Of a stretch of DNA of 50,367 bases, positions 162 through 48,636 are shown piece after piece. The DNA comes from a virus. Its lineage: Duplodnaviria > Caudoviricetes. The notes below the pieces were generated by a model. That model did not search any database, was not told where the DNA came from, and saw only the letters and a program-made list of their open reading frames with translations. Position numbers and translations under genes: made by a program. Position 1 is the stretch's first letter, and every line of letters begins with the position of its first letter. The stretch is taken from positions 1 through 50,367 of the IMG/VR virus record IMGVR_UViG_3300005100_000006, one strand, 5' to 3'.

Positions 162-191
162 TTCCGGAAACTCACTAGAGGCCACAGGACA

Positions 192-941
192 ATGAGCACC
201 AGACCATACAGCGCAAACAAGATAGCCGAAGCGCTTGGCATAAGCCGACAGGCCGTTAATAAGCATGTTCGGAAATATTGCGAAGAGGCGCGCATAGGAA
301 GCGGCAAGGGCGCACGAATCGACATTAATCACCCCGCTATGCAGCAGCTTTTTGAATCGAAGGGCGTCGACCATCAAGCAGAGTTGAAGCCAGCCGAAGA
401 GCGAAGCAGCCCGCAAGCATTCAATAACGTTTGTCAGTCTGACAGCAAAAGCAATGTAGCCAGCAACAGAAAACGCAACCAAGGCGTAAAAGGCAAACCG
501 GCGGGCAGACCACCAAAGCGAAACAAGCCACAGCAACCGGACCAAACCAACGGGCAAAGAAACCTAGAGAAAATTGATATAGCTGAGCATGGCGATCTAA
601 CCATTGACGAGATCGCCGCGTTCTTTGGTTCCGCACCCGATTACCGCGATTGGCTCGACGCCAAGAAAAAGCAAGTAGAAGTGATCGAGAAAGAAACCAA
701 GATAAAAATCACGCTTGGCGAGTACATCCGAAAGGATGTGGTTGAGAGCCTATTTATTGGTGTGGTGGATGCGCTCAACAGTCGACTACTCACTGACTTT
801 TGCAAGTCTGCCCCAATCGATTTGCGTCCCGCTTTCGAGAGTGGCAAGGATGACATCAAGATTGAATCGATACTTAGAACCCTGATCGAGAAAGAGCTAG
901 TAACACTGGTTAAGGCACAAGCGAGGTTTGCAGATGCTTGA
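192..941 (+). CDS. terS: Terminase small subunit (Nu1-like, N-terminal HTH)
   Basis: N-terminal HTH (SANKIAEALGISRQAVNKH) and C-terminal helical segment; overlaps terL start; ATG 192 chosen because GAGG/ACAGGAC precedes it. Confidence 0.8.
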   Translation: MSTRPYSANKIAEALGISRQAVNKHVRKYCEEARIGSGKGARIDINHPAMQQLFESKGVDHQAELKPAEERSSPQAFNNVCQSDSKSNVASNRKRNQGVKGKPAGRPPKRNKPQQPDQTNGQRNLEKIDIAEHGDLTIDEIAAFFGSAPDYRDWLDAKKKQVEVIEKETKIKITLGEYIRKDVVESLFIGVVDALNSRLLTDFCKSAPIDLRPAFESGKDDIKIESILRTLIEKELVTLVKAQARFADA

Positions 942-2931
942 TATATCCGTTATTGAACAAGAGCAAAATAATTGGTTGGCTGAAAAGCTTCTAGGCGTGA
1001 AGACTTCGCACCATGTAAAACTGGTAAGCGAGTGGGCGGCGACAACGCGGTACCTGCCAAGGTCGGTAACCTCAAAGCCTGGCATGTATGACTATGGCGC
1101 ATTCCCTTACCTTCGAGAGATTGCCGATTGTATGAGCTCAGAGTCACCAGTAAGAGAGATTGACGTGTTGAAAGGCGCTCAAATTGGTGCGACCGTTGGC
1201 TTATTAGAAAACACGGTTGGATATTATGCCGAGCACGAAAAAGGCGTTCCCATGCTTTTCGTGACAGCCGATAAAGAGCTGGCCGATCTAAGGGTGGATA
1301 ACTATCTAACGCCAATGTTTGAGCAATCCGGCTTGAGCCATCTTATCAAGTCGAGCGATACGCTATCGAAAAACAAGAAGGGTAAAACCAAAGATCAGCT
1401 GTCTTTTGCTGGTGGCGGCTTCCTTATCCCGTTTGGTGCCAATTCCGCGAACAAATTGCGATCGGTATCCATGAAAGTGCTTTTGCTTGATGAGATAGAC
1501 GGCTTTAAAACCAAAGTCGGCAAGGATGGCGATCCAATCCAACTGGCAAAAACAAGGACCAACGGCTTTGAATACTCGCGCAAGATCTTGAAGCTATCCA
1601 CGCCACTGGTTAAAGGCGCGTCCAACATCGAAAAACATCACGCAATGGGTGATTGCCGAGTGTATAAAGTACCTTGCAAGCATTGCGGCCATAAGCAAGA
1701 GCTTAGATTTTCTGGCGTGAAGGAAGAAACCGGCGAGCTGTACGGGTTGGTTTTTGAAACTGACGACGGCGTACTGATACCCGAGTCGGTGAAATACCTT
1801 TGCGAAAAGTGTGGCGGCGAACACGTCGAGGCGGACAAAGTGGATATGTTCCGCGAGAAAACCGACGACTATCCAGAGGGTGCGGAATGGGTGCCAACCA
1901 AGACACCAACCGAGCGAAACCGCAGAAGCTATCACATACCTGGCTTGCTTAGTCCTTACGGTTTTAAAACGTGGATCTCTTGTGTAATGGATTGGCTCAA
2001 CGCTTGGGACATTGAAGCGAACAAGGCAAAGGACATTGAAGAGCTGCAAGTTTTTTACAATAACGTGCTTGGGTTACCGTTTGCAGCGCGCACCGATAAA
2101 CTAGATCTCGAAAAAATGTGGGGCCACCGGCGCGAAAATTACGCCCACGGGGAGATCCCGAACCGCATTGCGAATATGTCTTGTGATGGTGATGTCATGC
2201 TATTAACGTGCGCGGTCGATGTGCACGGGGATAATTTGGCGGTTGCTGTTTATGGGTGGACCAAGAAATCGCGCGCGTTTTTGATCGACTACAAACGAAT
2301 CAAAGGCGATTGCGAAGACATAAACGATGTTTGTTGGAAAGAGCTCGAAGAGATGATCTATAACAAAGTGTACGAAGACCACCAAGGAAAGCGATACATG
2401 ATTCAGGTCACTGTTTTGGATACCGGTTATTACAATGACACAGTGATGGATTTTTGCAGCCGAACCGATCGCACCATCCCACTTAAAGGCCAGCAAGACA
2501 TCGTGAAGGGAGCGGCGCTGGTGGAGTTCTCAACCAGGCAAACCCGTTACGGCATCACAGCGTTTAACGTGAACGTTAACTACTACAAAGAACGCTGGTA
2601 CAAAGCGTTGAAGCGACCATGGCAAGGTTATGGCGATCAGCGAATGTATGGCTACAATTTGCCAAGCGACGTAACCAAAAAGCAGCTTAAAGAGCTGGTG
2701 GCTGAAACAAGAGTGCCGGACGAAAACGCCACGGGATACTTAAAGGGCTACAAGTACGACCGTAAAGGTGACAACGAGATGTGGGATTTGCTTGTCTATA
2801 ATAATTTCGCGTTGGACTTTGTAGCGTGGGAGCTTTTCCGAAGCCATGACCGTGAACAAATCAACATGCTCGAGTTTTGGGAATACTGCGAAACCGGCAA
2901 CAATGGCAAACCGATGTTTTATGAAGAGTAA
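934..2931 (+). CDS. terL: Terminase large subunit, lambda GpA family
   Basis: KGAQIGAT Walker A, LLLDEID Walker B, STP motif, CxxC pairs, AVDV nuclease motif. Confidence 0.95.
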   Translation: MLDISVIEQEQNNWLAEKLLGVKTSHHVKLVSEWAATTRYLPRSVTSKPGMYDYGAFPYLREIADCMSSESPVREIDVLKGAQIGATVGLLENTVGYYAEHEKGVPMLFVTADKELADLRVDNYLTPMFEQSGLSHLIKSSDTLSKNKKGKTKDQLSFAGGGFLIPFGANSANKLRSVSMKVLLLDEIDGFKTKVGKDGDPIQLAKTRTNGFEYSRKILKLSTPLVKGASNIEKHHAMGDCRVYKVPCKHCGHKQELRFSGVKEETGELYGLVFETDDGVLIPESVKYLCEKCGGEHVEADKVDMFREKTDDYPEGAEWVPTKTPTERNRRSYHIPGLLSPYGFKTWISCVMDWLNAWDIEANKAKDIEELQVFYNNVLGLPFAARTDKLDLEKMWGHRRENYAHGEIPNRIANMSCDGDVMLLTCAVDVHGDNLAVAVYGWTKKSRAFLIDYKRIKGDCEDINDVCWKELEEMIYNKVYEDHQGKRYMIQVTVLDTGYYNDTVMDFCSRTDRTIPLKGQQDIVKGAALVEFSTRQTRYGITAFNVNVNYYKERWYKALKRPWQGYGDQRMYGYNLPSDVTKKQLKELVAETRVPDENATGYLKGYKYDRKGDNEMWDLLVYNNFALDFVAWELFRSHDREQINMLEFWEYCETGNNGKPMFYEE

Positions 2932-3008
2932 CCCCTAAAATAAAAAACCCGAAAGGTGTGGTAAACTTGGTTTATTGCACCTTTACCGCCCTAACGGAGC
3001 CCAATATT

Positions 3009-10776: not shown

Positions 10777-11154
10777 ATGCCAGGTTCATTAGTAGAATTT
10801 GCAATCAATGGCCGCGCCTTTAAGTGCGCAGCCGATGCAGACGGTAACACCGACATTGGTGGCAAGGAAAACGAATTTCAGGCCAACGGTGACGGCGTGA
10901 CAGGTCGATTTATTCAACTGACAAAGGGCTGGAAATTTTCAGGCATTAACTTTGCTATTGATGAAGACAACGAAGATCAAGAATTTTTGCAAAACATTGC
11001 GGACGCTGGAAAGTTTGTTCCAATGAAGGCAATTTATTCTGACGGCACAGTCAGAGCGGGCAAGGGCAACATCACGGGACCTATTGAAGTAAGCTCAATG
11101 AATGGAACCGCACCGCTAACGCTTGAAGGCCCTGGGAAATTTCAGAGGCAGTAA
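10777..11154 (+). CDS. Tail tube protein
   Basis: 125 aa directly after sheath; ends LTLEGPG. Confidence 0.85.
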   Translation: MPGSLVEFAINGRAFKCAADADGNTDIGGKENEFQANGDGVTGRFIQLTKGWKFSGINFAIDEDNEDQEFLQNIADAGKFVPMKAIYSDGTVRAGKGNITGPIEVSSMNGTAPLTLEGPGKFQRQ

Positions 11155-11160
11155 GCAGAC

Positions 11161-11194
11161 ACAAAAAACCCGCCTAGATTGGCGGGTTTTTTGT
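11161..11194. terminator. Bidirectional intrinsic terminator
   Basis: ACAAAAAACCCGCC-tagatt-GGCGGGTTTTTTGT between convergent genes. Confidence 0.9.
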
Positions 11195-11195
11195 T

Positions 11196-11384
11196 TTATT
11201 TTATTAAGCAACTGGCTATCATATCGGCATCTTCAAACACGCCAACAAAATCACTGAAAACAAGAGTTGGACCACCAACAAAGTCGCATCCTTTTATTGA
11301 CACCTTTTTCACCACGTAAACTTCACCGTTAGATCGGCTCTTCACTCGACCTTTCATTAGTAGCTTTGCCTTTTTGTTTTTCAT
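11196..11384 (-). CDS. Hypothetical protein (moron 1)
   Basis: Coupled to upstream ORF; ends at the terminator. Confidence 0.6.
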   Translation of the reverse strand: MKNKKAKLLMKGRVKSRSNGEVYVVKKVSIKGCDFVGGPTLVFSDFVGVFEDADMIASCLIK

Positions 11385-11572
11385 CTTCCACTTTCCTGTT
11401 TTAACCTTTCATAAAGCCCCGCCAAGCCTTCTCGAATCTCTTTCGTGATTTGGCGAGCATTTATTTTTTCGTTAACGATAGCCGGATCGCTGGCGCACAC
11501 TTCGCAAAGCCCTAAATAATCGACTTGCGCGGGCTTCCAGCAATCGCGGCACTTGTTTTTTACTCTTGGCAT
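11381..11572 (-). CDS. Small zinc-finger protein (moron 1)
   Basis: CRDC...CEVC. Confidence 0.6.
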   Translation of the reverse strand: MPRVKNKCRDCWKPAQVDYLGLCEVCASDPAIVNEKINARQITKEIREGLAGLYERLKQESGR

Positions 11573-11754
11573 GGCTTACGCTTTAAAACGAAGCACGGGC
11601 GCTTTGGCTTGCTCTCAATCGCCCAAATGTGCGCCACAAAGTCTTCATAGGTATTTTGTTCAATCGGATCGCCGCAAGTGGTAAAGCCCGTTTCCCATTG
11701 GTCGATCAGGCTTTCTTTGTTGGCGTTAATCCAGTCGGTGTAGTTGTTAACCAT
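11560..11754 (-). CDS. Hypothetical protein (moron 1)
   Basis: ATG at 11754 after GGGG; overlaps both neighbours. Confidence 0.55.
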   Translation of the reverse strand: MVNNYTDWINANKESLIDQWETGFTTCGDPIEQNTYEDFVAHIWAIESKPKRPCFVLKRKPCQE

Positions 11755-11932
11755 CAAGCTTCCCCGCCTCTTTGCTGCAGTGTTCAAAACGGCATTCCGC
11801 CCAATGGCGTTGCTTGCTAGTGCACGGACTGTTAGCCGCGTTATTCCAATAAACCGCAGCCATTGGAAAGTCTTTCATTTGTTCAGCTTGCGCCGCTTTT
11901 GCCGTGTTTTTTTGGTAGTTTGCTGTTTGCAT
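11747..11932 (-). CDS. ANR-family (AraC negative regulator)/PerC-like small helical protein
   Basis: Pattern AAQAE..DF..AA..W..A.......RHWAECRFEHC recalled as the ANR signature; SD AAGGA. Confidence 0.65.
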   Translation of the reverse strand: MQTANYQKNTAKAAQAEQMKDFPMAAVYWNNAANSPCTSKQRHWAECRFEHCSKEAGKLDG

Positions 11933-11933
11933 G

Positions 11934-12152
11934 TTAGTTTCCTTTCTTATGGTGACCAGACCGGCGATCGAATACGAATGGCGCAAATTTTTCGCCATCT
12001 TTAACAAGAATGACATTGCTGCCATCGCCATTGATGTAACGGCGAAGCGTGCCGCGATTGAGGCCGATCTCTTTTGCGGCCTGTGTGATGTTCCCGCGGT
12101 GTTTAATCATTAGTTGCTCAAGGTCTGCAACTTCAATCATTTTTGTTTGCAT
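11934..12152 (-). CDS. ninH: NinH-like Fis-type HTH DNA-binding protein
   Basis: HRGNITQAAKEIGLNRGTLRRY aligns by eye with lambda NinH (YGNQTEVARRLKCSRGTVRKY). Confidence 0.7.
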   Translation of the reverse strand: MQTKMIEVADLEQLMIKHRGNITQAAKEIGLNRGTLRRYINGDGSNVILVKDGEKFAPFVFDRRSGHHKKGN

Positions 12153-12180
12153 GATTTTCCTTATTGGTTTATTTGGTTCA

Positions 12181-12209
12181 AGCTTAGCCGCCTAATCGGG
12201 TAAAATCAA
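12181..12209 (-). promoter_or_regulatory. Sigma70 promoter for moron 1
   Basis: TTGATT-17-TAAGCT, preceded by ACGGC as in the moron 3 promoter. Confidence 0.6.
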
Positions 12210-12214
12210 GCCGT

Positions 12215-12243
12215 TTGCGATAAAATTGCGGGACGGCTATAAT
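12215..12243 (+). promoter_or_regulatory. Promoter restarting tail transcription
   Basis: TTGCGA-17-TATAAT. Confidence 0.6.
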
Positions 12244-12314
12244 TAACGCGCCCGTCGGTCTGTCCTGTACCTTTAGCCATTTTGGTGGCGGGCACTAACA
12301 CAGGACCCAATCCC

Positions 12315-12728
12315 ATGACTAAAAAACAAGTAATGCCAATCGAGCAGGCAGAAACCGAACTAATCGAACTATTTAACGCAATGAGCATCGACACAGATGT
12401 TGATTCAATGCTTGAAGACGACCGCAAAGACTTTGAAAGCAAATTGCGCACACTGGCGCGACCTATCGCCAACGGTCAAGCAATCATTGACGGTGAAAGC
12501 TATGTGCTAACGCTTAAAAAAGCACTAGGCGACGAGAAGACGATCACCATTAGCGAGCCAACGGGCAACGCATGGGCGCAAATGGACAAAGCCGGAAAGA
12601 ACCAGGAAATGAAAAAGCTAATGATGTTCGTTAGTGGTTTTACTGGTGTTCCTTATGCTCAGATCGGCAAGCTGGTAAACTCAGACGTAAAAATACTAAA
12701 AGAGTTCGCTTTGCTTTTTTTGGTCTAA
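12315..12728 (+). CDS. Tail assembly chaperone
   Basis: Upstream of tape measure; ends in the slippery TTTTTTG. Confidence 0.8.
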   Translation: MTKKQVMPIEQAETELIELFNAMSIDTDVDSMLEDDRKDFESKLRTLARPIANGQAIIDGESYVLTLKKALGDEKTITISEPTGNAWAQMDKAGKNQEMKKLMMFVSGFTGVPYAQIGKLVNSDVKILKEFALLFLV

Positions 12729-12973
12729 CGACGATTCGAATTGTTAATGGTGGGGAGCTTAAACGGCTCCCTAATCGTTTGTATTTCGGTAAAGACGTCG
12801 ATCCTAATACTCGTGCTAACATATACACAACCATGTACGCACAAGTTGCCAAAGATTTTGCCAACGCACCAAGGCCGAAAGAAATAACGGTTGAGGAGCT
12901 GCGATTTTATTATGATTTACTTGTGCCAGAACTGATCCAATACCAAAAGGATAAAATGAGAAATGGCCAGTAA
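12716..12973 (+). CDS. -1 frameshift extension of the tail assembly chaperone (G-T/E-E' type)
   Basis: T TTT TTG at 12716-12722; -1 frame open from 12719 to 12973 and overlaps the tape measure start. Confidence 0.75.
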   Translation, partial: FFGLTTIRIVNGGELKRLPNRLYFGKDVDPNTRANIYTTMYAQVAKDFANAPRPKEITVEELRFYYDLLVPELIQYQKDKMRNGQ

Positions 12974-14546
12974 ATACAGCATATCGACAGTATTTAAAGC
13001 TGTCGACAAAGTGACAAAGCCCGTCCGCAAAATGACGGGCTCCATTCAAAACCTTACCGAAAAGACCGAAGCCGGACTGCGAAAGATTGACGCAGCAACG
13101 AGCAAGGTCACAGACGGTATATTCTCACTTGGTGCCACTGGCGCAAAAAGTGCAGCAACTATCACAGCCGCTTTAGTGGTTGGCGCTGGTGCAATCAACC
13201 ATATGAAAGTTGAGCAAGACAACATGACGCGAGCCATGGGCGCAAGCGTTAAAACTGTCGAAGCCGTCACAAGTGGAATAAAAGGTATTGGCTTAAATGC
13301 GGAGAATGTCACAGATTTATACGAAGAAATGAACAACAAGCTGGGCGAATCAGCGGGTATTGAAGAAATAACCGCCGTCACCGAATCGCTTGGTATTCTT
13401 GGGTTGCAGTTCAGAGACATTCAAAAGCTATCACCGGACGAGCAATTTAAAGCGATAACAAACGCAGCGCTTCAAATGGAAGACGCCACACAAGCAGCCG
13501 CCGCCGCCGATATGCTAATGGGTGGTGAGGCTAACAAAGTGATCTCCGCTTTGCGTATGCAGGGCAAGACCATGGACGACATTATTGGTAATTATCAAAT
13601 GTTGTCATTCCGCACCGACCAATCAAGGAAAGGCGCGGAAGATATGGCCAAGGCTCAACAAACCATGATGCAAATCACCGGATCGCTAACTCAAGAAATC
13701 AGCGGTTTGCTTGGTAAAGCGCTTGCGCCGCTTATCGTTAAATTCAACGAGTTCATGATCAACAATAAAGAGCTCATAAACCAAAACCTAGAAAAGCTTT
13801 TTGCATCGATTGGAACGGCGATCGGTGATATCACGCCGCACCTGGAAAGCGCGTTTAAGTGGATCGGAAGCCTTGGCGAGCACTTTAACGAGTTTGTTGA
13901 GTGGGCGAAGTGGGTTGGCAAGCTGGCACTGGTTATTGGTTCTTTAATGATTGGATTGAAGATATTTATCGGCATCATGACAGCGGTTAACCTTGTTATG
14001 GCAGCCAATCCAATCAGCTTGATGATTATTGCGGTTATCGCTCTTGGCGCTGCCTTTGCCTTTGCAGTTAAAAAGATTTATGACAATTGGGACGGGATAA
14101 CCGAGTATTTCGGCGGCATTTGGGAAAACATAAAAACAAACTTCAATATTGGCGTTGAGTTCATTAAATCCGCTTTCGACTGGAACCCGATCGACATGGT
14201 AAAGGCTAAGTGGGATGGTCTTAAAACGTATTTTGCCGATCTGTTTAGCGGTATCATCAATATGTATGATTCGACCATTGGCGCGATAAGTGGCGGCATT
14301 GATAACCTGACTTCAAGCGTTAGTGGATTCCTTGGCTTTAGTTCGGAAGATGAATCACCACAGCTAACCACGGAAGAAACCGCAAGCCCGCAGCAGCGTG
14401 CACAGGTAGCAATGAGCGAGACGATTACCCGAACCATACAAGATAGCCGCGAAACGGTTGATATCAACGTCACGGGGCAAAATGGGGCGCAAGTATCAAG
14501 CCCTATGCAGTCGCCAAGACTGAATTTGATTAATACAGCAAACTAG
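12963..14546 (+). CDS. Tape measure protein
   Basis: FKAVDKVTKP start, AANPI..IIA TM region, aromatic periodicity (NWDGITEYFGGIW). Confidence 0.92.
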   Translation: MASKYSISTVFKAVDKVTKPVRKMTGSIQNLTEKTEAGLRKIDAATSKVTDGIFSLGATGAKSAATITAALVVGAGAINHMKVEQDNMTRAMGASVKTVEAVTSGIKGIGLNAENVTDLYEEMNNKLGESAGIEEITAVTESLGILGLQFRDIQKLSPDEQFKAITNAALQMEDATQAAAAADMLMGGEANKVISALRMQGKTMDDIIGNYQMLSFRTDQSRKGAEDMAKAQQTMMQITGSLTQEISGLLGKALAPLIVKFNEFMINNKELINQNLEKLFASIGTAIGDITPHLESAFKWIGSLGEHFNEFVEWAKWVGKLALVIGSLMIGLKIFIGIMTAVNLVMAANPISLMIIAVIALGAAFAFAVKKIYDNWDGITEYFGGIWENIKTNFNIGVEFIKSAFDWNPIDMVKAKWDGLKTYFADLFSGIINMYDSTIGAISGGIDNLTSSVSGFLGFSSEDESPQLTTEETASPQQRAQVAMSETITRTIQDSRETVDINVTGQNGAQVSSPMQSPRLNLINTAN

Positions 14547-14563
14547 AAAACAACCGACCGAAG

Positions 14564-14606
14564 AAAAATAGCGGCTTGACTTTAACCAGTTAAGCCGCTA
14601 TTTTTT
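14564..14606 (+). promoter_or_regulatory. Combined terminator and sigma70 promoter for moron 2
   Basis: 17-bp inverted repeat followed by T-run; contains TTGACT(14576)-17-TATTTT. Confidence 0.7.
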
Positions 14607-14635
14607 ATTCACCAATACAAACAGGACCTTTAAAA

Positions 14636-14806
14636 ATGAAAAAAAAACTTACTAGCCTTTTTCTACTCTCATTCGTTTCTCTTTTGCCTCTTCCTTTTAT
14701 TTTTGATTATTCATTTATTGCGGCTGGCGCTTATATTTGTTTCGTTCTTTTGCTTGCAAGCGGGCTTTGGTCTGCAATGAATACTGGAGCCAAAAATGAA
14801 AAATAA
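14636..14806 (+). CDS. Small membrane protein (56 aa, two hydrophobic segments; not in ORF track)
   Basis: AACAGGAC before ATG; MKKKLTSLFLLSFVSLLPLPFIF... Confidence 0.65.
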   Translation: MKKKLTSLFLLSFVSLLPLPFIFDYSFIAAGAYICFVLLLASGLWSAMNTGAKNEK

Positions 14807-14894
14807 ACTCATTTACTGGGGGTTTATCGGATGCCTTAGCCTGGTGCTTTGGTTCGTCGTCATTAATGTGGCTAATAGAAATGGGTGGTTTTGA
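14796..14894 (+). CDS. Small membrane peptide (32 aa; not in ORF track)
   Basis: GGAG SD; MKNKLIYWGFIGCLSLVLWFVVINV...; TGATG-coupled to the next gene. Confidence 0.55.
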   Translation: MKNKLIYWGFIGCLSLVLWFVVINVANRNGWF

Positions 14895-15178
14895 TGATCG
14901 ATTTGATACTGGCAAGCCCCATAATACCAACACCAATAGAGGCAAGGATTTTTGTCGCTATCTGTTGCGCGTACTTAGTTTTTGATTACAGGTCTGATGT
15001 CGAAAGGTCTATAAAATTAAAAAGAAAAAAAATAACAGAAAGGCAAATATTTGATGGTCACAACGAAGTATCTTCAATGATTCACGCGGCCGTAAACACA
15101 ACCCAATTTTGTTGCTTTGAGTTCAGCAAGCAAATGGAAATAATCAGGTTTATAAACAACCGTTATTTGAGCCTTTAA
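14894..15178 (+). CDS. Hypothetical membrane-anchored protein (moron 2)
   Basis: TGATG overlap; hydrophobic N-terminus; AT-rich. Confidence 0.55.
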   Translation: MIDLILASPIIPTPIEARIFVAICCAYLVFDYRSDVERSIKLKRKKITERQIFDGHNEVSSMIHAAVNTTQFCCFEFSKQMEIIRFINNRYLSL

Positions 15179-15184
15179 CCCCCA

Positions 15185-15193
15185 TGCTACAAT
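15185..15193 (+). promoter_or_regulatory. Extended -10 promoter (TGCTACAAT)
   Basis: CATGCTACAATAA also occurs at 18881; lies where structural genes resume. Confidence 0.55.
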
Positions 15194-15223
15194 AACAACA
15201 TTCAAATTATCGAGGGCTAACCA

Positions 15224-16474
15224 ATGCCATGGCAAGACCGACTAACAGATTGCACATACACCGCACCTAGCGGCGCAGTCTTTACGCTTGAATACGAGAA
15301 CGTCAAGCGATCCCAAAAGAAGAAAACCACAACTTTCGAGTTCGTATCTAGTGATGATGTTTACGTGCAGGACAACGGCGTGGGCGCAAAAGTTTTCCCG
15401 CTTGTGGTTTATTTCTCAGGCGAAGACCACGACACAAAGGCCAATGAGTTTTTTGAAGCACTGGCAGAGCGTGGAGCTGGCGAGCTACAGCATCCTATCT
15501 ATGGCGTGCGAACCGTTAACGTCACAGACAAGGTTGAACAAGTAGACAACTTAAAAAGCGGAGCCAATCAAAGCGCCTTTACCATTACTTTTATTGAGAC
15601 CATCACCGACCTTTACCCGTCCGCGCAGGAAAACGCAGACGAGGCAAACAAAAAAGCTAGTGATGATTTCGACGCAGCAAAAGCCGAAGAGTTTGAGAAA
15701 GGCGTCGAGCTTGAAACCGTAGCCGAAGAACAATCATTGATTGAACAGATTAATGATAAAGTTGGATCGGTCGAAGAGGCAATTAAACCGCTCGTTGATG
15801 GCACAGCAGACGCGGAGCGATTCGCCAACGACTTGACCAACTCGATCACCAACGGCATTGACGTTCTTATTGGCACGCCTACAACACTAGCCTTTCAGTG
15901 CACGCAGCTTGTAAAGACTGGCGCGAATGCGTTTTCGTTAATCGGTGACAAGCTAGAAGCCTATGGCGATCTGCTTAGTGATATTGTTTCACCAGACAAA
16001 ACAACCACAACGCCAACCTACAACAACGTAGGCGCGAACACTGTACAAACACAAGATCTGTTTGCAGCGTCCGAAGTGTCCGCCGTTGCTTTGAGTATTG
16101 CAAACGAAGACTTTGAGACGCGAGAAGAAGCACTGAGCGCGGCGGAGTCGCTGCAAGAGTCGTTTTTTGACTATTCCGAATGGAAGGACCGAAACACCGC
16201 AGCGGTGGGAATTGAAGACGAGGGCCAAGGTTATGAGGCTTTACTTGCGCAAGTCACGCTTGCTGTATCTAGCACTATCAACAGCGCTATTGGGTTGCAG
16301 CGTATGCGCAACGTGGTACTTGATAGAGATATGCTAGTTCTAGACTTTGCTTATCAGTATTTTGGCACAACTGAAAGCGCAGCGGTTGAGAAAGTGATCT
16401 TAATGAACAACCTCGACAACGAGGAAATTTGGACGATTCCAAAGGGGCGCTTGATGCGTTATTTGGTGGATTAG
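15224..16474 (+). CDS. DNA circularization/tail initiator protein (Mu gpN-like)
   Basis: MPWQDRL, YVQDNG and GELQHPIYG motifs; C-terminal LysM-like segment. Confidence 0.85.
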   Translation: MPWQDRLTDCTYTAPSGAVFTLEYENVKRSQKKKTTTFEFVSSDDVYVQDNGVGAKVFPLVVYFSGEDHDTKANEFFEALAERGAGELQHPIYGVRTVNVTDKVEQVDNLKSGANQSAFTITFIETITDLYPSAQENADEANKKASDDFDAAKAEEFEKGVELETVAEEQSLIEQINDKVGSVEEAIKPLVDGTADAERFANDLTNSITNGIDVLIGTPTTLAFQCTQLVKTGANAFSLIGDKLEAYGDLLSDIVSPDKTTTTPTYNNVGANTVQTQDLFAASEVSAVALSIANEDFETREEALSAAESLQESFFDYSEWKDRNTAAVGIEDEGQGYEALLAQVTLAVSSTINSAIGLQRMRNVVLDRDMLVLDFAYQYFGTTESAAVEKVILMNNLDNEEIWTIPKGRLMRYLVD

Positions 16475-17686
16475 ATGACAACCCACACCATAAAGCCTGG
16501 CGAAAGTTACGAAGACATATCACGCCAGCAATACGGCACAGAAGAAGGCGCCGACACTCTCAAGAAGTCGAACCCGAGCGCAGGTGACACGCCCGCAGCG
16601 GGTAGCACTTTGTTTGTGCCAAAGACCAAAACCAAAACCAAAATTAACCCAACAAGTGACGTTGTAACGTTGATAATTGGCGAAACCGAGTTTAAAAACT
16701 TCATTGAGATAACTTTAACCCAGCGATTTGATTCCTTCGATACGTGCGACATTATTGCGCCGTTTGAACCAGATAACAGTGAGTTTAGAAAGCTGTTCAA
16801 GCCGTTTAGCTATCAGGATATAGAGGTCTTTATTGGTGACGAGCTGGTTTTTAGCGGTACCCAGATGGGCGTCAATCCGTTTGTTACGCCAGAAAGCAAA
16901 ACCGTTACGCTGTCTGCATACTCTAAATGCGCGGTCATTAATGATTCTTGCGTTCCTATTTCCGCTTATCCGGTAGAGGTGCGAGGCTTTAAGCTCGATC
17001 GCATTGCGAAGGGCATCACGCAAACTTTTCCGTTTGACGTTGTGGTAAGCGCGGACGTTGGCGACTCGTTCAACGTCGCAACTATAAAGCCCAGCAAGAA
17101 AATAGCCCCTTACCTGTTGGAGCTGGCCAAACAGCGCGACATTGTTTTAACTAACGATCTAGACGGTAACCTGTTGCTAACCAAGGCGACCGAATCCGAA
17201 AGCGTGGCGCACATCAAGGGCGATCAACCGCCTATGCTTGGCATTGTTCCGCAATTCAACGAGCAAGAGTATTACAGCGATTACACGGCGATTCTGCCCG
17301 TGATAATCAGGCAAGATCCAACCAGTTACACCGCAAAGAATCGTAAGCTTGCGAACTCGTTACGTGTCGATAACTACATGGCTACCGATTCTTACAACGG
17401 CGATGAGAAAACAGTGGCAGAAAGCCGCAGGGCGCGAGGCATTGCCAATTCAGTGGCTTATACGTGTGCACTGTCTACGCTACGCGATCCGCAAGGTGCG
17501 CTTTATACTGTGAATACGTTTGTGAACATCGAAGCGCCGGAGGCTATGATCTACCGTGATACGAAAATGTTTATCAAAGGCGTTACAATGTCACTTACAC
17601 CAAGCGCCCGCGCGTGCTCGCTTGAACTGACACTGCCAGAGGCTTACAACGGAAAGGACGTGGAGGTGTTACCGTGGGAAGAATAA
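16475..17686 (+). CDS. Baseplate hub protein (Mu gpP-like) with N-terminal LysM
   Basis: HTIKPGESYEDISRQQYG LysM; DLDGNLLL motif; synteny. Confidence 0.85.
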   Translation: MTTHTIKPGESYEDISRQQYGTEEGADTLKKSNPSAGDTPAAGSTLFVPKTKTKTKINPTSDVVTLIIGETEFKNFIEITLTQRFDSFDTCDIIAPFEPDNSEFRKLFKPFSYQDIEVFIGDELVFSGTQMGVNPFVTPESKTVTLSAYSKCAVINDSCVPISAYPVEVRGFKLDRIAKGITQTFPFDVVVSADVGDSFNVATIKPSKKIAPYLLELAKQRDIVLTNDLDGNLLLTKATESESVAHIKGDQPPMLGIVPQFNEQEYYSDYTAILPVIIRQDPTSYTAKNRKLANSLRVDNYMATDSYNGDEKTVAESRRARGIANSVAYTCALSTLRDPQGALYTVNTFVNIEAPEAMIYRDTKMFIKGVTMSLTPSARACSLELTLPEAYNGKDVEVLPWEE

Positions 17687-18309: not shown

Positions 18310-18325
18310 TTAAATAAAAAACGGC

Positions 18326-31122: not shown

Positions 31123-31149
31123 TTGTTTGCCCTGTTATTTGGTAGTTTG

Positions 31150-33518: not shown

Positions 33519-33532
33519 GTTGGTATGTCCTG

Positions 33533-33811
33533 TTACTTGTTAAAAACCCGAAACCGCTTTTCGATGAACTTTCTTAGCCTGGTGTTGGCCTCATAGCGTC
33601 CCGCGTTGGTTTTCTTGTGTGGTATGGGCTCAAGGCTTACGGCTTCAATGTATGCCTTGCTGTATGCGCGGCAGACTTTGCCGCGTTCGTTCTTGCTGTC
33701 GTCTATCGGGTCAAACTGTAGATAGCTAAGCATTTGATTTATCCACTCCCGATCCGCCTCGTAGTGGTGTTCGGGTAGTTGGCCAAGTGGTTGCTTTTTT
33801 CCGTATGCCAT
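33533..33811 (-). CDS. Hypothetical protein
   Basis: GGAG SD; in operon. Confidence 0.7.
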   Translation of the reverse strand: MAYGKKQPLGQLPEHHYEADREWINQMLSYLQFDPIDDSKNERGKVCRAYSKAYIEAVSLEPIPHKKTNAGRYEANTRLRKFIEKRFRVFNK

Positions 33812-34440: not shown

Positions 34441-36593
34441 TGTGCCACCTCGTAACCGGCGTCAATTCTGCTCTTGTAAATTGCATAATCAACAATTTCA
34501 ACGCAAGGCTCTTTGCATAACTCTTGCGCTTCACTTTCTGAATAAACAACACCGCAACAATCACTTTCGTCATGTATCCAGTAATATGCTGTCTTTGGTT
34601 TTTGCTCCTCTAAAAACTCAACTTGTTTAACTTCAAATTTCGCATAACCGTTTTGGCCTTCGCTTTTCTTCACCTTGATTTGATGCGGTGCCACTGTCCA
34701 AAATGCGCACTGTGAATATTGCGCGTCGATAGTGTCGTCGATTTGGCTTCGCTTAACGCCGTTTCCTTCCGCTAGACGATTGAAGATCCAGTGTTGGCGT
34801 GTTGTGTGCCATGCGACTATTGCGCCGATCTCCGTCATGTACGTTGCTTTAATGGAGTATCCGCCCGAGCCCGTCGAGAATCGTCCCTGTCCGCTTTGGT
34901 AAGGCTCGTATTTAGCGCTGGTGCAAGCAACTGTTCGAGTTTCGCCCATGCTCATGATGCCCGCCTGTCCCGCCACTTCGCTTAGTTTTTCATTTGGATC
35001 AACTAGGCGCTCTTTACACTCGACGCAGTGGCGCGCTGCGATATCATTATCAGCGTGGCATTCTGGGCACGTCTTGGCGCTGTAACGGTGTTCACATCGA
35101 ACAGGCTTGCCACTCATTACGTAAGCCTCTGGATTGCTGCAGCGTCTCGAGTAGTGCGCAGGGACGGGGATTTCTTTAAACCCGCAATCTCCGAACTCAT
35201 CCATGGTTGTAGGATCTAAAACTTGCATGGTTAGGGTTTCGCCTTCCCAAAGCACTGGCTCGCCATCCTCAAACTTCACCGCGCGTTCGGTACCGCTAAT
35301 CAAGAAATTACCAAAGGCGTCGTGCGCTAGTCCGTGGTATGCCTGTTCGTTTCGCTTCTTCTTCACGGAGTGAGCGCCGCAAGCGGGGCAAATAACCTCG
35401 ATTTCCACGCCTTCGCCTGGCTTTGGTTTTGCTTTAATTTGAGGGGTAAAAATATCCTCTTGCAGTTCGTGGCGGTCGATGTTGCCCGCGTAGTCGAGAA
35501 TTAAGCAATTGCCTTTCTCTTCATGCAGTCGCAGGCCGCGCCCAATGATTTGCTGAAAAAGCATGGCTGATTCGGTGGCACGTAAAACAGCAACCAGATC
35601 AACGTGCGGCGCATCAAAGCCCGTGGTTAACACCGAGACATTGACCAAAAATTTAAACTCTCGAGCTTTAAAACGGTTGATAATTTCGGCGCGATCTTTT
35701 TTCTTGAGTTGTCCGGTAACCACTTTCACGTCGCCAACCGGTAACAACTCCGCGATTTCTTCCGCGTGGCTAATGGTTGAAGCGAAGATCATCACGCCCA
35801 TACGATTGACTGACAGGCTTGCGATCTCTTTGACGATGTTGTGCGTTTTGGTGGATTTGTTGAAGACTTCCGCCACTTGCTTATCGTCAAATTTGCCCAT
35901 GCGGTTGAGTTCAAGACCGCTTGTGTCGTAGTTGTCCGAGCTCTCGCCAATCTGGACTTGAGACAAAAATCCCTCTTCCACCAGCTCTCCCGCAGTGATT
36001 CGGTAAAGCAATTTATTGAAAAATGGATCGACCGCCTTGGTTTCGTCGTGGTGGACGTCTTCCTCGCCCGCCGCGTCAATGGCGTAAATATAGCCCGTGC
36101 CCATGCGGTAAGGAGTTGCGGTCATGCCAACAATGCGGCACTTCTCGTTTGCCTTCTTGCCGTTAATTTCGAAGTTAAGCACGCCGTCAATGATTTTTTT
36201 AAGGCTTGGAGTAATGCCGTGCGCTTCATCGATAATGATCGCGCTAATACCCATGCGAGCGATTTTATCAATCGATTTCATGGCGCTTTGTGGTGATGCA
36301 AATATCACTTGAGAGCGCAGGCATTTACTGCCCGCGCTGGCGCAATAGATTGAGGCGTTATAGCCGAAATCTTTGTATTTTTGCGCGTTTTGCTCAACCA
36401 ATTCTTTTGAAGGCGCGATACAAAGCACTTTTTTTGATGGTGCGACGCCAGAGAAAAACTCCGCCAGCTTCGCAACGATTAGAGACTTGCCCGCGCCGGT
36501 TGCAAGTTCTAACAGGCTAGGTGAAAGACGCTTTTTTACGTAGGCGATCACAGCGTCTACGGCGTCCTGTTGGTAGTAGCGGAGTTTGTACAT
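34437..36593 (-). CDS. Superfamily 2 helicase (RadD/YejH-like) with zinc fingers
   Basis: LRYYQ, ATGAGKS, DEAH, TATP, LTTGFDAP, QIIGRGLR; CxxC clusters. Confidence 0.93.
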   Translation of the reverse strand: MYKLRYYQQDAVDAVIAYVKKRLSPSLLELATGAGKSLIVAKLAEFFSGVAPSKKVLCIAPSKELVEQNAQKYKDFGYNASIYCASAGSKCLRSQVIFASPQSAMKSIDKIARMGISAIIIDEAHGITPSLKKIIDGVLNFEINGKKANEKCRIVGMTATPYRMGTGYIYAIDAAGEEDVHHDETKAVDPFFNKLLYRITAGELVEEGFLSQVQIGESSDNYDTSGLELNRMGKFDDKQVAEVFNKSTKTHNIVKEIASLSVNRMGVMIFASTISHAEEIAELLPVGDVKVVTGQLKKKDRAEIINRFKAREFKFLVNVSVLTTGFDAPHVDLVAVLRATESAMLFQQIIGRGLRLHEEKGNCLILDYAGNIDRHELQEDIFTPQIKAKPKPGEGVEIEVICPACGAHSVKKKRNEQAYHGLAHDAFGNFLISGTERAVKFEDGEPVLWEGETLTMQVLDPTTMDEFGDCGFKEIPVPAHYSRRCSNPEAYVMSGKPVRCEHRYSAKTCPECHADNDIAARHCVECKERLVDPNEKLSEVAGQAGIMSMGETRTVACTSAKYEPYQSGQGRFSTGSGGYSIKATYMTEIGAIVAWHTTRQHWIFNRLAEGNGVKRSQIDDTIDAQYSQCAFWTVAPHQIKVKKSEGQNGYAKFEVKQVEFLEEQKPKTAYYWIHDESDCCGVVYSESEAQELCKEPCVEIVDYAIYKSRIDAGYEVAQ

Positions 36594-37093: not shown

Positions 37094-37153
37094 GATTATT
37101 TGTCCTGTTAAAAAGCCGCCGTTCTTGGCGGCTTGGGGTGGTGGTGGGTTTAA

Positions 37154-38117: not shown

Positions 38118-38172
38118 TGTTACCGTCCTGTTTTGGGTTAATTAATCCGGCGCTGTGCCGTTGATGTGGTGA

Positions 38173-38489: not shown

Positions 38490-38507
38490 AACAAACAGGG
38501 CTACAAA

Positions 38508-41273: not shown

Positions 41274-41335
41274 ATCGACGGCCCTAGAGAACACCAAATA
41301 ACAGCAAACTACCAAGCAAAACAGGACTATACACA

Positions 41336-41995: not shown

Positions 41996-42017
41996 GCACC
42001 AACAAACAGGACAATAT

Positions 42018-43004: not shown

Positions 43005-43052
43005 ATAACCACCCCAACGCGGCCACGGCCGCACTTATTTAAAACAGGAGTA

Positions 43053-43649
43053 ATGCCAATGGCAAACGAAAAATATTATGACTACTTCAAGTATGTCAAT
43101 CATGATCTTATGGGCCAGTACAGCGAAGAGGTTGGCCAAAAGCGCCATGAGTCTTTGCAAAAAATGCTTGATAACAGCGGGGCAATTGCTTACACATCAC
43201 GCAGCAGTTGGGGCGGTCCTGAAACTGTAGCGGAGCTAGTTTATCCATACGAAACGGAATTAAAAGAGCTTCCGCATGTAATGACTATCCGTACTGATTG
43301 GTTTGAAGACCAAAAAGTTGTCGTGCTTCGAGGCAAACTAAACAGCAAGGCGGGCAAAGAGTTTAACAAGTGGATTGATAAAGCCCGTGAAGAGCTTAAA
43401 GAGCTGCCAAATTTCAAAGCATGGGTAATTGATTTGCTAGACGTAAAGCGAACAGGTTTAGCCGGTCCGCATGAGTCAGGGCGTGGTACAGCCATGATAG
43501 AGACAGATTTTGCAATGCGTGAGGGTATCTATTTGTTTCGCATTCCAAAAAGCGATACTGGAAATGTTAGCGGCACGGAGGAAGTGCCAAAGGAATTTAC
43601 ACCGATCACTTATGGTCAGTGGTTTGATATCAAAGCGGAGTGGGACTAA
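43053..43649 (+). CDS. Hypothetical protein
   Basis: AACAGGAG upstream; ORF track. Confidence 0.7.
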   Translation: MPMANEKYYDYFKYVNHDLMGQYSEEVGQKRHESLQKMLDNSGAIAYTSRSSWGGPETVAELVYPYETELKELPHVMTIRTDWFEDQKVVVLRGKLNSKAGKEFNKWIDKAREELKELPNFKAWVIDLLDVKRTGLAGPHESGRGTAMIETDFAMREGIYLFRIPKSDTGNVSGTEEVPKEFTPITYGQWFDIKAEWD

Positions 43650-44050
43650 TGAAACCATCAGAACTAGCCAAGAGCCTTGGCGCAAAAAGCCTTTCGGAAG
43701 TGGCGACCGCTTACGGCGTGCACCCTAGCTATTTAAACCAGATTTTTAAGTCTAACCAAGTGCGCCTTGAAAACATGATCAAGGTGTATGTACTGGCTAA
43801 AAAGCTGAACATTAAAACCACGCACCTTCAATTCATGCTTGAAAGCGTGCTGGGCAACATCGAAGGCACCAACGCGGCGCATTACTTCATGACCTGTCCA
43901 GAAGCCCGCGAGGAGTTAACACGCGCTTATGTGGCGGACTTTAAAACCCGAATGTATGACATGTGCCAAAAGCTACTTACAGACATTGAGGCGCAAGCAG
44001 GGTTTCGCGACGTGGTGCACGACATGGTGAAGGCCAAGGATAAAGGCTAA
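43649..44050 (+). CDS. HTH-containing hypothetical regulator
   Basis: SLSEVATAYGVHPSYLNQ; TAATG coupling. Confidence 0.6.
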   Translation: MKPSELAKSLGAKSLSEVATAYGVHPSYLNQIFKSNQVRLENMIKVYVLAKKLNIKTTHLQFMLESVLGNIEGTNAAHYFMTCPEAREELTRAYVADFKTRMYDMCQKLLTDIEAQAGFRDVVHDMVKAKDKG

Positions 44051-44276: not shown

Positions 44277-44326
44277 GGCCATTCTATTAAGGCCATTTGG
44301 ATAAACACAATTTAACAGGACAAGAA

Positions 44327-45949: not shown

Positions 45950-46265
45950 AACGGTAAATCACCACGGCGGCAGAGACTTGGCGATTTTTATCGTGAAAAG
46001 CCTTGAGTGTCGCAACCGCTCGCTTAAATCAATCAACAGCCTGACATTTGGCAAGCCGGTTAGGAAAACCATTGAGGCCGATATCTACAACCCGCAACAG
46101 TGGATCTTCGAGTGGCTTTGGGATGTTGGAATAATTCAACCGGTTAAGCAAACAAAAACCATCAACGAGCACAAACCTTTCATGCTGGTTGATAATTTAG
46201 AAATGGCGCTGTACGAACTAGACCGCGCAATCGAAAATCAAACCAAACTAAAACAGGACCAATAA
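45924..46265 (+). CDS. Hypothetical protein
   Basis: ORF track; start reset to ATG 45924. Confidence 0.6.
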   Translation: MLNQNIKSKTVNHHGGRDLAIFIVKSLECRNRSLKSINSLTFGKPVRKTIEADIYNPQQWIFEWLWDVGIIQPVKQTKTINEHKPFMLVDNLEMALYELDRAIENQTKLKQDQ

Positions 46266-47488: not shown

Positions 47489-47530
47489 TCAACCAACAGG
47501 AGCAGCCGCCCAAGGGTGGCTGTGATTACC

Positions 47531-48358
47531 ATGCAAGCAACACTAACAACACTTTTAACCAACGACGAATACCGCGCCCAGCGTGGCACCAGTAAGTCAG
47601 AGCTAGACTTGGCTAATAAATCCGTTGCACTGCTTGAGTGGTCGCGCAACTGCCCGACCGATGGCAGTCGCTCAATTGACCTTGGTACGGATGTTCATTG
47701 CGCCTGTTTGGAGCCGGACGTTTTCGCCAAGGACTACGTAAGAATGCCCGAATTTGGCAGCGGCAAGGCAGCAGCAGAGAAGGCCGAGCAGTTCAAGGAG
47801 AACATGAAAGGAAAGATCGTGCTAACAACGCCCGAATATCAACAGGTGTTAGATATGCGCGACAGTGTGCTGGCTCATCCAGTCGCTAACAGGCTGCTAA
47901 CCTCAAAAGGCATTAGCGAGGCGTCGATTTTTTCAGAAATGGAATTGCAAGACGGCTCAAAAATTAAAGTTAAGTGCAGGCCCGATCGCATTGTGGATCC
48001 TGAAGTGTTTGGACAACATATTCTGGTTGATGTGAAGAAAACCGCAGACATTGACAAGTTTCACTGGTCAGTGCGTGATTTTCGCTATCATGTGCAGGAT
48101 GCGTATTACTCGGATATTTACAAGCACACCGATATGTACCTAAAAAGCAACACGGAATCGGTTCGATTTATCTTTATCGTCGTAGGCGAAAAGCGTAGTA
48201 TTGGACGCCACCCCGTTCGAGTGTTTCAGTTAGACCGAGACACCAAAGAAACAGGCCGCAAGGCTTATTTGCAAGACTTAGAAACCGTGAACGAATATCA
48301 AGAGTTCGGTTGCGGTTTGGACGTGGAAAAGCTCGATTTGAGCGGTATTATTAAGTAA
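47531..48358 (+). CDS. recE: RecE/exonuclease VIII-like PD-(D/E)XK nuclease
   Basis: SKSELD, GTDVH...LEP, KCRPD, DVKKT and YHVQDAYY motifs. Confidence 0.9.
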   Translation: MQATLTTLLTNDEYRAQRGTSKSELDLANKSVALLEWSRNCPTDGSRSIDLGTDVHCACLEPDVFAKDYVRMPEFGSGKAAAEKAEQFKENMKGKIVLTTPEYQQVLDMRDSVLAHPVANRLLTSKGISEASIFSEMELQDGSKIKVKCRPDRIVDPEVFGQHILVDVKKTADIDKFHWSVRDFRYHVQDAYYSDIYKHTDMYLKSNTESVRFIFIVVGEKRSIGRHPVRVFQLDRDTKETGRKAYLQDLETVNEYQEFGCGLDVEKLDLSGIIK

Positions 48359-48636
48359 CTAAAACAGGACTAAACAACATGGGCGAAATGACACAGCAGG
48401 ATTATGACGACAGTTGCGATGGCTTTAAGTTAGAAGTAAATAACCTGGTGAAAAAATCAGGCGAAAACAGTCTTTCAATGGCAATTGCAAAGGGCAACAA
48501 AGAAATTACAACCATGCTTTATCAATTCCAAGAAATGATTAATCCAGCCGTTAATAAACTTGGATTAAAAACTAAATCACTATCTGAAATCTTTGGCGTA
48601 GAAATCAAGCTAACAGCTTACTAAAACAGGACTAAA
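48358..48636 (+). repeat. 17-bp direct repeat (48358-48374 and 48620-48636)
   Basis: ACTAAAACAGGACTAAA twice; the 13-mer core is also at 46247-46259. Confidence 0.9.
48379..48624 (+). CDS. Hypothetical protein inserted between recE and bet
   Basis: AACAGGAC upstream; flanked by repeats. Confidence 0.7.
   Translation: MGEMTQQDYDDSCDGFKLEVNNLVKKSGENSLSMAIAKGNKEITTMLYQFQEMINPAVNKLGLKTKSLSEIFGVEIKLTAY

Follow-up and report, generated by a model that had tools for sequence, protein, structure and literature searches.

In the portions of the literature drawn on here, the start-associated sequence (SAS) of cluster K mycobacteriophages is a short asymmetric word that occurs 11-19 times per genome, a few nucleotides before start codons that are mostly ATG; it was described in 2011 (Pope et al., PMC3203893), and its function was still called unverified in 2025 (Front Microbiol, PMC12699233). 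The same portions depict a word that is present in a single orientation and mainly at non-structural genes, that combines a Shine-Dalgarno (SD) core with flanks unable to pair with 16S rRNA, and that hardly occurs in the host genome and is conserved from one subcluster to another on different gene families (PMC3203893). In this work we analyze a signal of this kind in IMG/VR record IMGVR_UViG_3300005100_000006, a complete phage genome of 50,367 bp (Duplodnaviria; Caudoviricetes) that was studied at its full length and is hereafter called the window. The signal is the 8-mer AACAGGAC, which precedes the start codons of mostly early, replication, recombination and accessory genes, as well as the first genes after promoters or terminators. 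A conserved RNA loop complementary to its ACAGGAC portion is found in the leader of the second tail operon, and we put at roughly 0.4 the probability that the word is read by RNA-RNA pairing with this loop, in cis as well as in trans.

As far as those portions extend, the cluster K SAS is the closest known analogue of the word, and the positional features of the former all recur in the latter: the word is far more frequent than expected by chance, lies before starts, joins an SD core to unpairable flanks, marks non-structural genes, is rare in the host and is conserved in related phages. The two differ in length and sequence, since the Vibrio-phage word spans 8-10 nt, (A)AACAGGAC, and the cluster K word is the 13-nt GGGATAGGAGCCC; they also differ in host phylum and virion, a myovirus-type phage of Vibrio in one case and a mycobacterial siphovirus in the other. 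Nothing like the 17-bp inverted-repeat extension known as ESAS was found in the aligned 70-nt upstream regions of the window, where only two sites share a longer upstream repeat. Moreover, the Vibrio phage has a conserved complementary RNA loop, and none is described for cluster K in the portions cited. The Vibrio-phage word is hence an analogue, and not a homologue, of the cluster K SAS.

Other systems provide further terms of comparison. Trans-acting small RNAs pair with the SD regions of several mRNAs through an exposed loop or seed. The candidate loop resembles them in offering a complement of 6-9 nt, predicted to be exposed, to the ribosome sites of several genes, with predicted occlusion of their SD; it departs from them in being part of the 5' leader of a phage structural operon, with targets that carry a private word apparently evolved to match. 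In phage T4, RegB and RegA control early mRNAs, and the window shows a similar phage-wide distinction between early and late ribosome sites that could allow a joint early shut-off, but its word lacks GGAG and the recognition proposed here proceeds through RNA pairing instead of a protein. High-affinity sites of CsrA/RsmA present GGA in the loop of a short hairpin. The word shares with them a GGA core overlapping the SD, in a CAGGA context that is present in host CsrB-family RNAs, and is set apart by its invariant flanks, by the lack of hairpin presentation, by being specific to a phage lineage and by going unused at host starts. A literature search for the Vibrio-phage word, or for a phage anti-SD chaperone pseudoknot, returned nothing on this signal.

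The start-associated word and its distribution

The left half of the phage genome holds the terminase, portal, protease, capsid, sheath, tube, tape measure and baseplate genes, and the right half encodes a helicase, SSB, a primase-helicase, an exonuclease, RecT, two DNA methyltransferases, a denV-like glycosylase and many small open reading frames (ORFs). Neither tRNA genes nor, at the gathering score, Rfam families were found in the window. In GenBank, the closest relatives of the window are Vibrio phages with a nucleotide identity of about 75%, whose hosts are V. lentus, V. splendidus, V. cyclitrophicus and V. crassostreae. Gene starts were derived from a purpose-made caller based on ORFs and codon scores, complemented by inspection, and no curated annotation was used.

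The word occurs 16 times in the window, against 1.16 expected (standard deviation 1.14), and at least 16 copies were reached in none of 100 shuffles; the 7-mer ACAGGAC is found 20 times against 3.3 expected. An earlier note on this DNA had listed the copies of the word, anticipated a chance level of one or two per genome and assigned the signal to non-structural genes, and in these respects its reading is borne out: the 16 copies lie exactly where it had placed them, and the signal is strand-specific and mostly non-structural. Thirteen copies fall 2-8 nt 5' of the ATG of ORFs of 56-406 residues, always in the orientation of the gene, and the spacing is 8 nt in eight of these (nine if the second ATG, at 18387, is taken for one of them). 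Eleven of the 13 lie within 26.5-50.3 kb, the non-structural half, and the other two (ORFs 14636 and 18381) precede small accessory ORFs in the tail module. The three remaining copies, at 5033, 25577 and 36564 (minus strand), are intragenic, also as noted before, and the virion genes mostly have GGAG, GAGG or GGGG as their SD, again in line with the earlier description. That the start-associated translation signal is real is near certain, and the word, in the form (A)AACAGGA(C>A>T), is a start-associated sequence private to the lineage, present at about 13-20 genes of this phage.

The AGGA core of the word lies 7-9 nt from the ATG, the usual SD distance, and constitutes the sole such element of the genes that bear it. 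The 3' end of the 16S rRNA of the Vibrio hosts is GGATCACCTCCTTA, so that only AGGA can pair and the flanks cannot, as the earlier note had maintained in calling the flanks unexplained. No complement of the word of at least 6 nt exists elsewhere in Vibrio 16S rRNA, and none of at least 7 nt in the 23S or 5S rRNA of one rRNA operon; pairing with another segment of rRNA was rejected as the reader of the word on these grounds. When the leaders of 20 genes with the word or a variant of it were compared with the other 47, their mean folding energy was -3.5 versus -7.6 kcal/mol (P = 1e-4), the predicted unpaired probability of the SD region 0.72 versus 0.50 (P = 2e-5) and the upstream G+T fraction 0.37 versus 0.51. 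With pairing confined to AGGA and open, A/C-rich surroundings, these leaders thus present a weak ribosome site, and the word is a ribosome-binding sequence of extended length, in which the AGGA core provides a weak SD of 4 bp at the optimal distance.

Host starts do not use this word. In five Vibrio genomes of 5.0-5.7 Mb, chosen by primer search and including strains from the host groups of the relatives, AACAGGAC-N5-8-ATG occurs 3-11 times per genome on both strands, the level of the reversed control (2-9), and the 50-kb phage has 12 occurrences. With the same gene caller, the 8-mer lies upstream of none of 318 host genes (380 kb of one Vibrio genome) and ACAGGA upstream of three, compared to 10 and 16, respectively, of 61 window genes. 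The base preceding AGGA-type sites is A in 57% and C in 6% of host cases, and C in 62% of those in the window. Three unrelated Vibrio phages (1.027.O, 1.113.A and K396) have no AACAGGAC-N2-8-ATG at all, and a fourth, 13VT501A, has one; two of the first three infect recorded hosts of the relatives, and K396 has no recorded host. The word is not a habit of the host and is private to the phage lineage; the earlier note had named a similar frequency at host starts as an outcome that would speak against a special signal, and the counts are of the opposite kind.

These data bear directly on host CsrA, which the earlier note had put forward as a reader, alongside a phage protein or a phage small RNA. 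By binding the GGA of the word over the SD, CsrA would tie early phage translation to host physiology, and the presence in the word of CAGGA, a GGA context of host CsrB-family RNAs (CAGGAT occurs 16 times in 8 such RNAs), together with the four CsrB-family RNAs that the hosts have per genome, is compatible with such a role. The GGA contexts of the same 8 sponge RNAs are, however, diverse (AAGGAA 18, CAGGAT 16, TAGGAT 15, ATGGAC 11, CAGGAC 2), and CsrA might therefore contact the word, yet its binding would not keep AAC and the last C constant. Furthermore, the folds of the 20 leaders expose GGA in open RNA and not in hairpin loops, the word is used neither by host genes nor by unrelated phages that share the hosts, and phages infecting different Vibrio species, among them 367.14 of V. 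mediterranei, retain it. A CsrB-like RNA was sought in the phage and none was found. CsrA as the reader of the word is, in our estimation, very improbable, and this part of the earlier proposal is not supported.

Conservation in related phages, which the earlier note had advised checking, is extensive. The close relatives (PS15B-5, 1.017.O, 1.201.B, 1.225.O, 1.087.A, 1.246.O, 1.191.O, 1.223.O and H188) have 82-85% sheath identity to the window, and all nine carry 5-10 exact copies each, nearly all of them start-associated. Over these and the window phage, termed here the ten genomes, the forms present at starts are AACAGGAC (68), AACAGGAA (27), AACAGGAT (13) and AACAGGAG (3), which amounts to C in 68, A in 27, T in 13 and G in 3 cases at position 8 of the word. 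Because G at this position would strengthen pairing with rRNA and is yet rare, we count its rarity as selection on the word itself. The 68 exact copies are most often 8 nt (32), 7 nt (16) or 6 nt (9) from the ATG. Across 97 distinct sites, positions 1-2 are almost always AA and position 3 almost always C; the base before the word is A, less often T, and G is depleted upstream. The commonest inner variants are AATAGGAC (7) and AACAGGGC (5). More distantly, phage 1.174.O (66% sheath identity) has five distinct exact sites and the word is its top upstream 7-mer, and in phage 367.14 of V. mediterranei (46% sheath identity, 58% G+C) the top upstream 7-mer is AACAGGA, with six of its eight copies preceding first-ATG ORFs. 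Five IMG/VR contigs likewise carry the word.

The word is kept at orthologues of recT, denV, 28010 and 46268 despite unrelated flanks; at the denV-like site, for instance, the orthologues of 1.017.O and 1.087.A retain it amid differing flanks, and the seven recT orthologues listed have AACAGGAC in one case, AACAGGAA in five and AACAGGAG in one. On the other hand, the helicase, 43649 and Dam-type methyltransferase families differ between phages, bearing the word in one and GGAG in another, and orthologues of the Dam-type methyltransferase in other phages have other SD words. Since orthologues keep the word within unrelated flanks and a single family uses different words, the word follows position and lineage rather than gene family.

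Such a pattern could also arise if the word were simply a preferred ribosome site acting in cis, with no trans reader. A weak, non-extended 4-bp SD within an unfoldable A/C leader would then give fast, uniform initiation, and, the phage group being highly mosaic, the word would have come to be shared by descent, by copying and by the exchange of cassettes at gene boundaries. The significantly less structured, A/C-rich leaders are what this explanation predicts, and the C at -1 and non-G at +1 fit an A/C-rich context in which the SD is not extended. It also accommodates the location of the word at mosaic junctions, the alternation of the word and GGAG within one gene family, the finding of 8 of the 13 motif genes in at most two of the nine relatives, and the moron-like character of two motif genes, which form cassettes with promoter-like and terminator-like sites of their own. 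An A/C rule would, nevertheless, permit many words, and the near invariance of AA and of C at positions 1-3 is not what it anticipates; neither is the persistence of the word in 367.14, at its G+C content and sheath divergence. Eight bases are, in addition, probably too few for efficient homologous exchange, and the identity between the C flanks and the ancestral SD word of the chaperone-position gene, which pairs with the leader loop discussed below, would be a coincidence. We thus regard a purely cis-acting preference as somewhat unlikely.

The individual sites are as follows. On the plus strand, exact copies are located at 14620-14627, 8 nt before ATG 14636 of a 56-residue ORF within the tail module; at 18371-18378, 2 nt before ATG 18381 and 8 nt before ATG 18387 of a 66-residue ORF; at 27998-28005, overlapping the stop codon of the upstream gene and 4 nt before ATG 28010 of a 116-residue protein; at 41320-41327, 8 nt before ATG 41336 (219 residues, phrog_2457); at 42005-42012, 5 nt before ATG 42018 of a DUF551 protein; at 44314-44321, 5 nt before ATG 44327 of a DNA methyltransferase (phrog_757); at 46252-46259, 8 nt before ATG 46268 (406 residues, phrog_1376); at 48363-48370, 8 nt before ATG 48379 (81 residues); and at 48625-48632, 8 nt before ATG 48641 of a RecT-family annealing protein. 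Minus-strand copies precede the denV-like pyrimidine-dimer glycosylase (26910-26917, 8 nt before ATG 26901), the Dam-type DNA methyltransferase (33527-33534, 8 nt before ATG 33518), a 165-residue protein of phrog_17597 (37102-37109, 8 nt before ATG 37093), whose site is directly 3' of a terminator-like hairpin, and a 96-residue protein that is the first gene of the leftward early operon (38125-38132, 7 nt before ATG 38117).

The site at 14620 has a sigma-70-like site (14576-14604) and a hairpin immediately 5', and that at 18371 has a terminator-like hairpin (18323-18346) and a promoter-like site (18326-18354) on the same side. The regions at 14560-14635 and 18310-18380 share a longer upstream cassette, in which a GGCTTGACTTTAACC-type hairpin with a T-run is followed by a TTGACT-17-TAT... 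promoter-like site and then by the word. Neither of the two ORFs has a homologue in the nine relatives, save for one weak match, and both look like moron-type cassettes carrying the start word of the lineage.

The shorter ACAGGAC is present, as previously reported, at 184-190 and 12300-12306, both on the plus strand. The former lies just 1 nt before ATG 192 of the gene in the small-terminase position, and hence cannot serve there as an SD site. Variants are AACAGGAA at 27072-27079 (plus strand, 5 nt before ATG 27085) and at 11393-11400 (minus strand, 8 nt before ATG 11384; 62 residues), AACAGGGC at 31129-31136 (minus strand, 6 nt before ATG 31122; 67 residues) and at 38494-38501 (plus strand, 6 nt before ATG 38508 of the primase-helicase), and AACAGGAG at 43043-43050 (plus strand, 2 nt before ATG 43053). 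The 11393 site is an addition to the earlier list, whose entries at 27072 and 43043 were accurate and those at 31128 and 38495 each off by 1 nt; its entry at 47495, a copy of AACAGGAG, is doubtful as a start site, given that it lies 13 nt from GTG 47516 and 28 nt from ATG 47531. The intragenic copy at 36564-36571, on the minus strand and 22 nt into the helicase gene, was excluded from the start-site count. The 20 nt around it are also kept in PS15B-5 and 1.201.B and an in-frame GTG lies 12 nt downstream; this copy is probably conserved coding sequence.

A leader hairpin complementary to the word

The complement of ACAGGAC, GTCCTGT, has a single copy in the window that is not the back strand of a start site. 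It lies at 12262-12268 on the plus strand, within a 5' leader hairpin of the second tail operon (12246-12296, plus strand), and 31 nt 5' of the ACAGGAC at 12300-12306, which is itself 8 nt before ATG 12315 of the gene in the tail-assembly-chaperone position (phrog_4648). The hairpin follows a sigma-70-like promoter (TTGCGA-17-TATAAT, 12215-12243, plus strand) with 10 of 12 consensus matches, joint-best of 15 sites in 11000-19000, and it would hence sit at the 5' end of the transcript, as judged from the consensus match only. GTCCTGT, a candidate anti-SAS, is identical in 16 of 16 genomes or contigs of the clade (the ten genomes, 1.174.O and five IMG/VR contigs), and the neighboring bases of the loop vary. 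Those contigs come from a sheath-alignment search of IMG/VR that returned seven, five with both word and loop and two short structural fragments with neither; a search for related loci with the chaperone-position protein alone yielded nothing. In the consensus fold, an outer stem encloses a small hairpin with GUCCUGU in its loop region, where it is predicted to be exposed, and both the outer and the inner stem covary. No Rfam match was detected around the leader at E-values up to 1.

In distant relatives, whose sheath identity is 42-47%, the interval from the tube gene to the chaperone-position gene is organized in the same way, and the loop and the SD word change together. The loop GUCCUG faces the SD CAGGAC in the clade of the window, in 367.14 and in Oceanospirillum phage PD0307, GCCCUG faces CAGGGC in VP16C and Aeromonas phage AeroV_348, and the same GCCCUG faces UAGGGC in Pseudoalteromonas phage PY6. 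Likewise, GCCCUAU is matched by AUAGGGC in Shewanella phage SppYZU01, UCAGCCCU by AGGGCUGA in Vibrio phage 1.009.O, AGCCCU by AGGGCU in Shewanella phage SFCi1 and Vibrio phage CKB-S1, and GCCUUG by CAAGGC in Acinetobacter phage Scuro. On an alignment of 14 sequences from 14 lineages, 78% of the cells that join loop and SD pair, versus 37-45% when the partner is slid. Five of the pairs change on both sides (columns 29-89, for instance, are CG in 8 sequences, UA in 5 and UG in 1), and the covariation score is 0.196, a value reached by none of 500 shuffles, compared to 0.132 after shuffling. The rows of the window and of PS15B-5 are imperfectly aligned in the SD region, which can only lower the pairing count. 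At the level of sequence comparison, an ancient, pseudoknot-like interaction in which the loop is predicted to pair in cis with the ribosome site of the chaperone-position gene is thereby demonstrated. A nested hairpin with a loop-to-SD pseudoknot is common to myophages of Vibrio, Aeromonas, Shewanella, Pseudoalteromonas, Oceanospirillum and Acinetobacter, and the leader is a candidate for a new family of cis-regulatory RNA in this wide group.

GTCCTGT and ACAGGAC form an inverted pair on either side of the start of the tail operon, and this arrangement might also suit a signal at the DNA level, either an oriented site recognized by a phage DNA-binding protein, as are the stoperators of mycobacteriophage L5, or a minimal promoter element for leaderless mRNAs. 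The asymmetric, intergenic sites oriented with transcription, their narrow spacing of 6-8 nt to the ATG, which fits a -10-to-start distance as well, and the conserved helix-turn-helix proteins of these phages are in keeping with that idea. The word, nonetheless, always has its GGA core at SD distance, as the only SD-like element of its genes, and several copies lie inside a predicted 5' leader just downstream of sigma-70-like promoters. The stems of the leader covary with the inclusion of G-U pairs, which points to RNA, and the PHROGs and Pfam searches identified neither an RNA polymerase nor a sigma factor of the phage. A DNA-level function thus appears at least as improbable as reading by CsrA.

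The tail operon restarts in the window after an insertion. A strong terminator-like hairpin (11161-11194; 14 pairs plus a T-run) lies 3' of the tube gene and is followed by three small minus-strand genes, one of them NinH or helix-turn-helix-like, and by a divergent control region of 280 nt. Distant relatives are without this insertion between the tube gene and the restart of the tail operon.

Reading of the word in cis and in trans

We propose that the invariant flanks of the word, which the ribosome cannot read, would be read through RNA-RNA pairing with a phage RNA. The leader loop GUCCUGU would pair in cis with the SD site of the chaperone-position gene, and the same loop, on an abundant transcript, might act in trans by pairing with the remaining copies of the word, whose SD sites it would occlude. 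The outcome would be a joint down-turn of the gene set, for example of the early genes once the tail genes are transcribed.

Several observations are consistent with this proposal. The C before and the C after AGGA are precisely the bases that pair with the two G's of the loop, and the same C flanks are present at the chaperone-position gene of outgroups that have no genome-wide word; it seems plausible that, in the clade of the window, the word of the chaperone-position gene spread to 13-20 starts. The G at position 8, helpful to the ribosome but not to the loop, is nearly absent, both of the commonest inner variants retain pairing with the loop through G-U, and the conserved GUCCUGU, with its predicted exposure, complements ACAGGAC at 13-20 starts, as would be expected of an anti-SD RNA. 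In outgroups, moreover, the chaperone-position gene shares its lineage-specific word with the first gene, which is in the small-terminase position, and this word is complementary over 8-9 nt to the loop of the lineage. These first-gene words are CAGGGCUA in AeroV_348, AGGGCUGA in VP16C, CAGGGCUGA in 1.009.O and AGGGCUAAC in SFCi1; they follow the loop in four of the five outgroups read, and hint at action in trans. Three of the five genomic copies of AGGGCTGA in 1.009.O are located at starts.

Other observations weigh against the proposal. The first A of the word and the A preceding it are as conserved as the core and have no partner in the loop, and AACAGGAA, the second commonest form with its 27 copies, loses one loop pair. 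PD0307 has the same cis pair with just two ACAGGAC starts, and hence the loop by itself does not create a regulon; the loop of CKB-S1 matches its words over only 6-7 nt. The outgroups VP16C, AeroV_348 and PY6 lack a clear genome-wide enrichment of their own 6-mer, which is confined to the starts of the first gene and the chaperone-position gene and to a few others, and in SFCi1 and CKB-S1 the first gene is called small-terminase by position and not by similarity. Cofolding gives a mean predicted net binding of -6.8 kcal/mol for motif-bearing leaders versus -3.4 kcal/mol for the controls, a modest advantage with overlap between the two that is circular by construction. The leader of the window taken alone folds no better than shuffles (z = 0.15), its predicted fold places part of GUCCUGU in a short stem, and the clade genomes are kin, so that counts across them are not independent. 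The candidate RNA is an mRNA leader, and a separate small RNA would be hypothetical; the loop could have tracked whatever SD word its own gene uses.

The two A's that the loop leaves unpaired would be covered if the reader were a protein. A sequence-specific RNA-binding protein other than CsrA, of phage or host origin, could repress or activate the gene set in the manner of T4 RegA or of a RegB-type endonuclease, and an invariant single-stranded word of 8-10 nt suits a protein site. Small proteins without assigned function and conserved in all ten genomes are indeed available (11563-11754, 11750-12031, 27616-27996, 28010-28357 and 43649-44047). Searches of 69 phage proteins against PHROGs and of 50 against Pfam, however, identified no RNA-binding or nuclease domain and no protein like CsrA, RegA or RegB, and those conserved small proteins that have any match resemble helix-turn-helix DNA binders. 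The sole hint of a phage RNase is a sub-threshold match to PIN_8 (E = 0.002) for 27037-27279. Phylogenetic profiling for a reader gene does not discriminate among candidates, because the motif-bearing genomes all share the structural module and five small genes. A protein reader would also leave the conserved, covarying and complementary RNA loop unexplained, and we consider it unlikely.

Among the readers suggested in the earlier note, a phage RNA is the one for which a concrete candidate, the conserved loop, can be named, and no reader protein was found in the phage by the PHROGs and Pfam searches. Beyond the pairing itself, the stronger formulation is that of a private translation code, in which the leader hairpin would be a trans-acting anti-SD RNA and the word of some 20 early and accessory genes would be fully read by the loop and not by the ribosome. 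This we advance tentatively, and with somewhat less confidence than we attach to pairing as such.

Neighboring elements and significance

Two further elements of the window were observed. A perfect inverted repeat, GCTATTCCT...AGGAATAGC, at 28378-28409 spans the ribosome site of a large tail-fibre-like gene (ATG 28407) and would sequester its GAGGAA SD; it is kept in ten of ten genomes, slightly altered in H188, and, from its sequence, looks like a second, gene-specific translational hairpin. The 38 nt at 30986-31023, in or adjoining the minus-strand ORF 30922-31122, recur with 100% identity in unannotated DNA of some 26 phages of V. lentus and V. splendidus that are otherwise unrelated, for instance near the right end of MG592411.1, and the region has longer, weaker matches in genes annotated as 'membrane lipoprotein' in other Vibrio phages.

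The word analyzed here is short, absent at host starts and kept down to 46% sheath identity, and it resides in easily grown phages of marine Vibrio. Locating a covarying loop complementary to it turns the descriptive puzzle of start-associated sequences into a directly testable idea of how such words are read. Independently of any regulon, the loop-to-SD pseudoknot provides a conserved, candidate cis-regulatory RNA of a wide myophage family, whose copy in the window has no match in Rfam. If the trans reading is true, the build-up of one late transcript would switch off a whole class of genes, and the combination of a private start word with a complementary viral RNA loop may explain the start-associated sequences of other phages, including those of cluster K.

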